From a virus (lineage: Duplodnaviria > Heunggongvirae > Uroviricota > Caudoviricetes), in IMG/VR virus record IMGVR_UViG_2718218449_000002: 64,000 nt of DNA. One strand, 5' to 3'. Position numbers: made by a program. Of the stretch, positions 6,001 to 9,000 are shown piece after piece. Within the stretch, counting starts at the first letter, position 1; each line of letters starts with the position of its first letter.

Positions 6001-9000
6001 TCTCACGACTTCAACTGGTGCCCTTGCAGCAAACTCCATGTTGGTGATCAGCTCATTAAGAAATTGCTCGCTGGGATACTGTTTCTTATCGGTTATAGTG
6101 GTCATATCACTCTCCTTTGATGCGAATGCCAGCAAGCCAGTTTCTTATGCCGATATATTCAGCGTTCCTGAAACCGCTTTTTACATATATAAATGGCAAT
6201 CGAAGATTGTGACCATTGACTGCTAGGTAATCTTTACAACCCTGTTCGGTGAAACAGCAGGTAACGAATTCATCAATATCTTTCACAGCAACGCGCCGCC
6301 ATTTTTCTGGTGGCTCCCGAAAGTTTTCATGAAGTAGTTCGAGACGACGACTTTGGAGTTTATTGGCTTCATTGCCATCTTCATCAACCCAGACAATCCG
6401 GTCATAGTCATAATCAGCATCAACAACGATTTCGCGCTTTTGATACACACAAAACATAGGATCTGACGTTATTCGATTATCCTGTGTTCGAATATTTTCA
6501 CCGATGATGCCAAACGAATCTGGTGCAGATTTTGTCTGCATCTCTTCGATACGTTCAGCCATCGCAGCACACTCTTCAAAGTTGCTTAATGCTTTTCGCT
6601 CCCATTCGGCGCATTGTTTTTCCAGTTCTGCTATGTGCTTACTTCCATCCGAGATAACGCCCTCGTAATACTCACGCTGCTCGTTGAGTTTTGATTTTGC
6701 TGCTTCAAGCTCAACGCGCAGCTTCCCTACCGTTAGCGCAATATCCTCGTTCTCCTGGTCGCGGCGTTTGATGTATTGCTGGTTTCTTTCCCGTTCATCC
6801 AGCAGTGCCAGCGCAACATTTGGATTAAAGGCAGCAATAAATTCAGCGTTTGCGTAAGCCTGAGCATCTGTTTCAACCAGGCAGTTAACATGACATTCTG
6901 CAATCACGCCACCGGGTTCTCCTTTCCATTTTTGGCAAACAAAAACTCCTGTTAAATTGCCGTGTTGGTTAACAGATGTATGCCCTACGATGTAGCTTCC
7001 TTTAGTTGCTTTCTCTGCCTTTTCACGCAGTTCCTGATAGTCAATCTTGCTCACTGGTTGCCTCCTTTGTGGAGCTGCGCTGCGATGCACGAAAAAAAAG
7101 ATTCCCGCGTATGACAGTTAAGAGCTGGTGCGAAAGCCGCGTTAGGAACGGCAGCATCACAGCCGTCATCGATATAGAGCGCAATTTTTTTCTCCAGGCG
7201 CGCTTTGGCTTCCTGCAACTGCATACCCCGGCACGTACGCGGGATATACTCAGCAATTTGAGCGATAGATTTTTCGTTCTGTTTAAACATGCTTCACCTC
7301 GACAGGCTTGATTGTGTCGATCAGCAGTCTGCGGCGCGTATTTTCTGCAAAGTGGCGGCGTCCGGTTTCTTTGTGGTAAAACTCGTTTTTGCCGACGACC
7401 CACATCCGCTCTGTCTGGTGAAGTTTTTTTACCTGCGGGCCGTCTTTGGTGATCACAATGCCGGTATGGGTTTTTACGATTGTCATGCCACTACCTCTTC
7501 GAATTTCAACTCCAATTGGTCACCCCAGATTTCACATGATTCGGAACACGAACCAGTATCAAACCGCTTGGCCAGCACCATCGCTTGATACAAATTGCTG
7601 TAGTCGCTGTCGGCATACATCCTGGCAATCCCGTCAAGCGTCAGGTGACCACGGTACATAACGTCTTTACCTGTTCTGCGATGACCATCCCTGACGTGTT
7701 TGCCTGTAACCAGTTCATTAAAAACCCGCATCAGACCAGGTTCGTCTTTACATGCAAGCCCCAGCTTTTGCGTTGACTTTTTGATGCAGAAAACACAGTT
7801 CCCGAGGTGCTCCGGGATTTGCAAATCAAAAGGTTGTTTTCGCCACCACCGGATAACATCCGACTTATCAAAATCTGACAGTTCGGCAAGATACCGGACG
7901 CCCGGTTTCGGTTTCAGCCTACGGGGTTCGTCTGCACGAATACCCAGCCACGTGATGTAGTTCCCTTGTCCGAAATGGTCATCGCAGTATTTTATGAAGG
8001 GGGTGAGTTTTAATCTGTCAGTGCAGAACGCGCCGCCGATGTATGGCGTGCCATATTTTTTTACCATGTCCATAAACGGTTTAAGCACCGGCATTCGCGT
8101 CTGAATATCCTTTGGTTCCCATTCCGTATAACCATTTGGCTGCCCAAGCTCTGGATTTATATCGACCTGCAACACGGTTAGCGGAATATCCCAGAACTTC
8201 ACAACCTCCCGAATAAACCGGTACGTCAGCGGGTGTTCACATCCCGTATCCATGAGTATGTAATGAACGTTTTCACCAGCTTTTCTGCGTTGCTCCATAA
8301 GGTGGACGAGGTACGCCGATGTCCGACCGCCTGAAAAACTCACAACATGATGAGTGCTCATTTCTTCGTCTCGTTACGGGGAGGGGGTTAAATAGGTGGT
8401 AAGCTGGAATTGCCGGATGTTTACCCGTGTCCGGGGTACGACCTCACGTTGCAGCGTACGAGAATAGACTATTGCTCAGTATCGTTTGATGTCGGCTGAG
8501 GATATTCGCCTTGCTCTTGTAACAGAGTTAGAAGAATGGAAAACCCCTCACGATGTGATGATTGATGAGTGTCGATCCCGGAATGATTGATGTTGTTAAA
8601 CTCCAACATCGTGCTCCTGGCGATAGCCTCAACGGTATTCCAGAATACTAATACATCTGTTTTCTGCTCTGTTTTATCAGCAACAGGAAGTTTGATATTT
8701 TGTTGACATTTATTAATGCAACCATTTTGAATATGTTCCTCGTGCTTTTCATTGTCATAAGCATACAGCCCGACAAAAACATCTCGCACGTTACGGGATA
8801 TATTTTCCAGATTCGCCTTTGGTTCCTTTGTTAAATCAAGCACCGATAAATGGGCTTTAAGCGTATCCGCAGCTATTTTCTGAATATCCTCTGGTAAATC
8901 TTTAAATTGCATAGTATACCCTCCAAGAACTGTGTATTTTCTCGTGAAATATGAGCGATATGTCGTGACGTCCCTGTCACAGATTTCATCACACTGAGAA

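Follow-up and report, generated by a model that had tools for sequence, protein, structure and literature searches.

Which substrate does a sulfur-transfer-type enzyme serve when a phage carries it? The question is raised by ninC, a gene on the minus strand (7483..8361) of a stretch of 64,000 nucleotides from the caudovirus record IMGVR_UViG_2718218449_000002, which in its full length is called the window in the following. An earlier note on this DNA had assigned the gene product to the superfamily of phosphoadenosine phosphosulfate (PAPS) reductases and DndC-like proteins and had proposed a function in DNA modification or anti-restriction rather than in sulfur assimilation. Here, we establish which fold this protein adopts, how its family is related to others, which residues are conserved, to which domains homologues are fused and where the gene lies in the genome. 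Sequence comparison shows it to be the Stx2-phage orthologue of NinC from phage lambda, and profile alignments place the NinC proteins as a sister group of SspD that stands alone and is carried by phages and plasmids, with DndC as a more distant relative. The Ssp and Dnd systems for DNA phosphorothioation have SspD and DndC, respectively, as their component with the PAPS-reductase fold. As judged from sequence and by analogy, NinC probably holds an iron-sulfur (Fe-S) cluster, and its target is probably DNA or the phosphorothioation pathway of the host. The explanation we favour, to which we assign a probability of roughly 0.45, is that NinC is an early-expressed sulfur-transfer enzyme of the SspD/DndC type that would plug into host phosphorothioation such that phage DNA escapes restriction.

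The ninC coding sequence, as given by the list of open reading frames (ORFs) and the sequence itself, runs from an ATG at 8361..8359 to a TGA stop at 7485..7483, encodes 292 amino acids and is the only copy in the window. Pfam's PAPS_reduct family (PF01507) is matched with 34.4 bits (gathering score 22.5, E 2.9e-8), where the match is limited to NinC residues 5-72 and profile positions 2-66 of 175. End-to-end matches are found to PHROG 424 (named 'phosphoadenosine phosphosulfate reductase'; E 2e-92), and phrog_33262 is matched with an E-value of 1.1e-90. The AlphaFold (AF2) model reaches a mean predicted local distance difference test (pLDDT) score of 85.8 and a predicted template modelling score (pTM) of 0.84. 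Its confidence is weak only in the last ~25 residues, with pLDDT <50 at residues 269-271 and 280-292. The 292-residue start is backed by homologues and by other records. RefSeq NC_028449 (phage PA2) uses the internal Met22 instead, which yields 271 amino acids (window 7483-8298; 9984-10799 in our copy of that genome, L001), and the PP-loop is therefore lost from the annotated protein.

Lambda NinC (NP_040635, 290 amino acids) and the window protein are 80% identical and 91% similar over 288 residues without gaps. They share all motifs, all five conserved cysteines discussed below and the database name. Neither this orthology nor the existing annotation as NinC or PAPS reductase had been seen in the earlier note. 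The name NinC itself goes back to a location in the nin region and does not imply any sequence criterion; the window copy lies elsewhere and belongs to NinC by similarity and by hidden Markov model match.

We compared NinC with the individual PP-loop families to find its closest characterised relatives. Among the PADLOC models, SspD scores best (E 2.4e-14), followed by DndC (6e-4) and BrxP (6.5e-4). For hhalign, the query was a profile of 108 NinC homologues. Comparators were two SspD test proteins, a DndC from a dndCD locus as well as CysH and CysD from E. coli. The SspD proteins stem from two loci (L089, L090) that encode, in the canonical order, a desulfurase, a DUF4007 protein, a large ATPase and the PAPS-reductase-fold protein, with a DUF262 gene in one of them. 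Both single SspD sequences are aligned to NinC residues 4-223 with a probability of 99.1% (E 4e-19 and 1.6e-18), and a 27-member SspD profile reaches 99.7% (E 4.9e-27, 200 columns). Respective values are 96.5% for DndC (E 8.7e-10, residues 4-147), 90.8% for CysH (E 1.2e-6, with the alignment ending at residue 144) and 80.4% for CysD (E 1.3e-5). The DndC equivalog model TIGR03183 assigns NinC 15.5 bits, i.e., its cut-off of 290.4 is not reached. QueC (PF06508) and TilS were considered as well and rejected, given scores far under their thresholds. That is, the superfamily placement of the earlier note is borne out by Pfam, PADLOC and hhalign alike. Concerning the families it had named for a closer assignment, PAPS_reduct holds, while DndC and QueC stay below their cut-offs, and the closest family, SspD, had been missed.

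The database name would suggest a different role, namely an auxiliary metabolic gene whose product is a true PAPS or adenosine phosphosulfate (APS) reductase that raises sulfate assimilation during infection. The fold search points the same way at first sight, since the best PDB matches of NinC are APS and PAPS reductases; here, Foldseek against BFVD and PDB returned only PP-loop relatives and matched no solved DndC or SspD structure. The sequence models disagree with this assignment. The NCBIfam models of CysH, PAPS and APS reductases yield 12-23 bits where 154-254 bits would be needed (NF002537 22.6 vs. 154, TIGR00434 16.1 vs. 165.1, TIGR02057 12.6 vs. 254.2, TIGR02055 12.3 vs. 235.3), and the similarity to CysH is confined to the N-terminal ~145 residues. 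Assimilatory PAPS/APS reductases carry the C-terminal catalytic motif E-C-G-[LI]-H. NinC ends on G-S-C-S-E-S-C-E-I-W-G instead of E-C-G-L-H, and it keeps the SGG loop that is absent in CysH. Furthermore, E. coli already possesses cysH. Unmet cut-offs and the partial CysH alignment rule out the assignment to sulfate assimilation, such that the clear housekeeping identity named in the earlier note as counter-evidence to its proposal was not found, and we regard a metabolic role as very improbable.

Next to the overall similarity, the conserved residues of NinC are informative about its possible chemistry. Conservation was assessed in an alignment of 108 representatives of 50%-identity clusters that are 27-55% identical to the query, 90 of which match PF01507 in a Pfam scan; counts for the PP-loop rest on the 104 representatives that include the N-terminus. 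All motifs below are located by their minus-strand coordinates. The SGGxxS PP-loop reported earlier is indeed present as S8-F-S-G-G-R-T-S15 (8317..8340), a variant of the form SGG[RK][TS]S; its SGGRTS aligns with SGGKDS in both SspD and DndC. All 104 have S10 and S15, while 103 keep G12 and 98 keep G11. At position 14, Thr is found in 93 and Ser in 11 cases, and none shows the Asp of the canonical SGGxDS.

The second motif, C113-T-D-R-L-K118 (8008..8025), combines a candidate Fe-S ligand with an invariant Lys, since both C113 and K118 are found in all 108 representatives. It aligns with W-C-T-D-R-L-K of DndC and W-C-T-x-x-M-K of SspD; in the wider alignment, F-C-T-D-R-L-K-L-T-P-F of NinC faces W-C-T-I-R-M-K-L-E-P-F in SspD and W-C-T-D-R-L-K-I-Q-P-T in DndC. 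The third, G140-I-R-A-D-E-P-R-R148 (7918..7944), keeps G140, R142 and R148 in 108/108, E145 in 107 and D144 in 106 representatives. Its G-I-R-A-D-E-P is also found in SspD and corresponds to G-V-R-R-D-E-S in DndC. Directly following this motif, an insert of 58-103 residues interrupts the alignment between query residues 146 and 158 in about 30% of the representatives; it is variable, looks helical and matches no Pfam family. Two further candidate Fe-S ligands form the CxxC pair within G187-N-C189-V-F-C192-I-K-K195 (7777..7803), where G187, N188, C189 and K195 are kept throughout (108/108) and C192 in 107 representatives. Here, G-N-C-V-F-C of NinC aligns with S-G-C-T-F-C in SspD and F-G-C-W-T-C in DndC. 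Finally, C272-S-E-S-C276-E (7531..7548) places a cysteine pair, kept in 105/108 representatives, on the C-terminal tail, which is probably flexible given its low AF2 confidence.

Eight cysteines are found in the window protein, and the remaining three (C41, C126, C204) are not conserved. In the 27 SspD sequences, exactly five cysteines are invariant, namely C92 after the central strand, the pair C179xxC182 and, at the very end of the protein, the pair C294xxC297. Direct alignment with NinC cysteines is seen for the first three, while the tail pairs agree in position only. The C-terminal cysteine pairs of the earlier note are thus partly confirmed: C272xxxC276 is truly C-terminal, whereas C189xxC192 is situated in the middle of the protein and C113 had been overlooked.

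Protein fusions provide information on the likely substrate. In the 108 representatives, NinC is fused only to Dam (PF05869), which is found in 5 clusters at the N- or the C-terminus, and to a D12 methyltransferase (PF02086) in 1 cluster. All fusion partners are thus N6-adenine DNA methyltransferases, and the occurrence of two families in both domain orders is a strong hint at a DNA substrate or at cooperating activities. This bears on the idea that NinC acts on RNA or free nucleotides, e.g., by a tRNA thiolation that affects translation or anticodon nucleases, or within the nucleotide pool. Beside the exclusive fusion with DNA methyltransferases and the poor TilS and QueC scores, RNA-binding domains (THUMP, PUA or similar) occur in 0/108 representatives, and we consider this explanation decidedly unlikely.

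One of the fusions links NinC to a phenotype. Protein p0018 of Vibrio phage 44E38.1 (P0088 in our set) is a NinC-Dam fusion of 479 amino acids with 56% identity over 95% of the query; its N-terminal domain keeps every conserved NinC motif, while its C-terminal Dam domain is absent from the window protein. When p0018 and p0019 were moved into a sensitive sister phage, it grew on Dnd-protected Vibrio crassostreae (Piel et al., bioRxiv 10.1101/2021.05.05.442762). The recipient already had a 96%-identical stand-alone Dam, and the authors credit the anti-Dnd effect to the gained 'PAPS' domain (same source). In a survey from 2026, phage PAPS reductases that are Aca-regulated are listed as homologues of DndC/SspD and as candidates for anti-defence genes (PMC13551039). 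JSS1_004, another anti-Dnd protein, was evaluated as a relative of NinC and discarded, since it is an unrelated kinase.

A methyltransferase-associated gene also occurs outside of phages. In Acinetobacter conjugative plasmids (141 records), a NinC-like gene is found two genes from an N6_Mtase gene. In these plasmids (MOBF/MPF_F), it is placed among small same-strand genes together with H-NS, a thermonuclease, N6_Mtase and parAB. The A. baumannii plasmid p2006S08-082-2 (L087, 6001-6774) encodes a version of 257 amino acids that has kept C113 and the CxxC pair and misses the tail cysteine pair.

Taken as a whole, the kinship with SspD, the low CysH scores, the methyltransferase fusions and the anti-Dnd segment favour the DNA-modification or anti-restriction candidate of the earlier note over sulfur assimilation, as far as sequence comparison can tell. 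The kind of mark could nevertheless be another one. NinC might activate a base carbonyl or another group of the DNA and install sulfur or some other group, i.e., generate a base hypermodification at or near adenine-methyltransferase sites that blocks classical restriction enzymes and not the phosphorothioate-dependent ones. The nearest characterised relatives are, by a wide margin, SspD and DndC, which modify the backbone, and the sole phenotype tied to the NinC family is the anti-Dnd effect. Furthermore, we know of no report of an unusual base in lambda DNA. Such a mark is therefore, in our view, doubtful.

For the favoured explanation, i.e., sulfur transfer that plugs into host phosphorothioation, the following course is conceivable. 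The PP-loop of NinC would bind an adenine nucleotide, and C113, C189 and C192 would hold an Fe-S cluster. The latter is proposed by analogy to APS reductase, DndC and [4Fe-4S]-dependent thiolases, and because these three cysteines are invariant and aligned with cysteines of SspD and DndC. Sulfur might be taken from a cysteine desulfurase (IscS, DndA or SspA), possibly via the flexible C272/C276 tail. We propose this step because SspD, which shows pyrophosphatase activity in vitro, binds the desulfurase SspA (PMC7188994). NinC would subsequently deliver the sulfur into an activated DNA substrate. All established phosphorothioate writers need a P-loop NTPase (DndD, SspC or BrxC) in addition to the PAPS-reductase-fold protein (PMC12914056). 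Since NinC comes without an NTPase of the DndD/SspC type or a DNA-recognition partner of the DndE/SspB type, its most likely mode of action is to plug into the phosphorothioation machinery of the host; for the fused forms, targeting might be provided by the attached Dam methyltransferase instead. Replicating phage DNA would thereby gain the host's 'self' mark and be spared by DndFGH restriction, possibly also by Ssp effectors. In hosts that lack phosphorothioation systems, NinC would be dispensable, and the plug-in model would thus explain both the dispensability on K-12 and the frequent loss of ninC.

Several observations weigh against this explanation. The PP-loop Asp that is invariant in SspD is replaced by Thr or Ser in all NinC proteins, and an ATP pyrophosphatase activity of NinC is therefore not assured. 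Residues 224-292 align with neither SspD nor DndC. No NTPase partner accompanies NinC in eight annotated phage contexts, one of which is the window, and one plasmid context, and no conserved neighbour or partner of any kind is found in this set either. The literature on NinC function yields only essentiality tables and interaction maps. To our knowledge, phosphorothioates are not known in lambda DNA grown on K-12, which argues against a NinC that writes the mark unaided. The Vibrio experiment moved p0018 and p0019 together, such that the NinC domain was not separated (bioRxiv 10.1101/2021.05.05.442762). Finally, in one study, vibriophages that bear NinC infected Dnd+ and Dnd- hosts alike, and its authors see no Dnd-specific effect (PMC10945359).

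A stronger version is also conceivable, in which NinC is a self-sufficient single-polypeptide enzyme for DNA sulfur modification that works either by itself or under the direction of an adenine methyltransferase, fused or co-expressed. Neither a DndD/SspC-type NTPase nor DndE/SspB would then be needed to mark replicating phage DNA with a phosphorothioate or a thio-base. We judge this version improbable.

An unlikely explanation, too, is that NinC leaves the phage DNA unmodified and works as a mimic or sink, which binds a desulfurase or other Dnd/Ssp partners and disturbs host phosphorothioation or the restriction coupled to it. SspD forms complexes with SspA (PMC7188994), and the combination of an SspD-like core with a different C-terminal third and a PP-loop without Asp would suit a decoy. 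The same holds for the occurrence as a single gene across many unrelated phage backgrounds. On the other hand, the Ser and Gly residues of the PP-loop, K118, R142, R148, K195 and the five cysteines are kept down to ~28% identity, which is typical of an active enzyme and not of a decoy. In addition, stopping new modification would not obviously shield unmodified phage DNA from DndFGH.

The genomic setting fits an early function. About 3 kb around ninC are 100% identical to the Stx2-converting phages PA2, VT2phi_272, phi346 and phi349, in whose records the gene is annotated as 'NinC' or 'phosphoadenosine phosphosulfate reductase'; for the gene itself, 100% nucleotide identity is found with the genes of PA2, VT2phi_272 and phi346. 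The window encodes the Stx2 A subunit (24257-25216, plus strand; Pfam RIP, E 1e-29) downstream of Q and is therefore an Stx2-converting phage. It also encodes Q, NinG, a helicase/primase replication module and a LexA-type repressor. Going away from the repressor on the minus strand, regulators are followed by gam-like, recT, exonuclease and ssb genes, two ORFs (one of them DUF2303), a 147-residue ORF, ninC, a 67-residue ORF, a 79-residue ORF, an ead/Ea22-like gene and, later on, DUF551 and an MT-A70 methyltransferase. That is, ninC follows the recT/exonuclease/ssb genes near the repressor on their strand and lies upstream of the ead/Ea22-like gene, which agrees with the early-left accessory region given in the earlier note. 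By this gene order, ninC is part of the leftward early (pL-side) operon and should be expressed early in lytic growth. No promoter or terminator belonging to ninC was identified, as consensus matches around the gene are no commoner than in shuffled sequence.

In lambda, ninC is flanked by ninB and ninD and belongs to the nin region within the rightward operon. In the window phage, it is instead located in the leftward early operon, flanked by the 147-residue ORF and the 67-residue ORF, where the latter is unrelated to lambda NinD. In its short nin region, the window has DUF1367, NinG and Q only; given the single copy in the window, ninC thus sits on the other early arm in this phage. A Dam gene in place of ninC was also considered for the nin slot, but the slot holds none.

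The 67-residue ORF (phrog_1226; 7283-7486, minus strand) starts within the ninC stop (ATGA), and the 79-residue ORF (phrog_1344; 7051-7290, minus strand) overlaps the 67-residue ORF in turn. This overlapping arrangement suggests translational coupling with ninC. The window furthermore carries modification genes of its own. A BsuBI/PstI-type restriction endonuclease (14925-15878, minus strand) overlaps by 4 bases with an Eco57I-type methyltransferase (15875-17344, minus strand), which adjoins the LexA-family phage repressor (17439-18152); the pair forms a PstI-type restriction-modification system that the phage carries in its immunity region. The leftward gene block of ninC also encodes, at its far end, an intact MT-A70 (DPPW) N6-adenine methyltransferase of 208 amino acids (324-950, minus strand). 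In phage PA2, its counterpart is interrupted by an IS3-family element. The late region contains a single ORF of 2,806 codons (54426-62846, plus strand).

With regard to distribution, ninC is a common prophage gene, accessory and dispensable; as a feature of the window, it is ordinary and already annotated. Related DNA is present in 552 of 5,426 complete E. coli genomes (~10%), mostly in the chromosome, with 74 of 597 matching places on plasmids. Protein homologues are found in 565 phage records, 341 of which are Vibrio phages. The carriers include temperate lambdoid and P22-like phages, virulent T1-like and Chi-like phages as well as Vibrio phages. The viral-contig scan for diverse ninC contexts returned only loci of at least 92% identity and was therefore uninformative in this respect. 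Large E. coli and Salmonella plasmids (~78-115 kb), which may be phage-plasmids, encode NinC at ~93-95% protein identity. In Vibrio phage K68, an inserted homologue (L085, 1451-2302) separates the large terminase gene from the portal gene, which is an unusual, moron-like position in the packaging module.

Lambda does not require NinC on K-12 (PMC10695390). In the Stx2a-converting phages LC727854, LC727848, LC727865 and LC727870, ninC is reduced to its last 54 codons (residues 239-292, 100% identical). These copies are deletion remnants, and ninC is therefore expendable there. Both observations fit a host-dependent accessory role.

NinC is among the few lambda genes that are still without a function after decades. 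While the gene and its annotation were already known, the kinship with SspD, the five-cysteine layout and the exclusive fusion with adenine methyltransferases are added here. Together with the anti-Dnd segment, the SspD sisterhood and the methyltransferase-only fusions make the function of NinC directly testable, beyond the vague label 'PAPS reductase'. If the favoured explanation is true, many phages would possess in NinC a means to counter phosphorothioate-based immunity, with bearing on the host range of Stx-converting phages and on the engineering of therapeutic phages, and the common view of these genes as auxiliary genes of sulfur metabolism would be corrected. If NinC were even self-sufficient, no smaller phosphorothioation machine would be known, and phages and conjugative plasmids would carry in it a portable module for 'self-marking' against restriction.

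Among the known systems compared with NinC, TtuA, NcsA and LarE are [4Fe-4S]-dependent PP-loop sulfurtransferases that share 10-15% identity with it and act on tRNA or a cofactor. For the APS/PAPS reductases (CysH; PDB 2goy, 6vpu, 1sur), only ~160-180 residues superpose with NinC, at a template modelling score of ~0.4-0.5. DndC aligns over the N-terminal 145 residues, shows a near-identical W/F-C-T-D-R-L-K motif and shares G-x-R-x-D-E and G-C-x-x-C with NinC, while it is bigger (379 amino acids in the example used) and has additional cysteines and another C-terminal half. SspD resembles NinC in size (278-307 vs. 292 amino acids), in the layout of five cysteines and in a profile match over NinC residues 1-223. 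The two differ in that their identity is ~24%, NinC has Thr or Ser in place of the invariant D18 of the SspD PP-loop, the C-terminal third of NinC (residues 224-292) is unalignable, and the tail motif is CxxxC in NinC and CxxC in SspD. SspD is carried by defence islands and encoded beside sspA (desulfurase), sspB (DUF4007) and sspC (NTPase), whereas NinC is carried by phages and plasmids and is not found beside these genes in the contexts inspected. Lacking the operon partners, the Asp of the loop and an alignable C-terminal third, NinC is thus not SspD proper, which is the sense in which we speak of a sister group.

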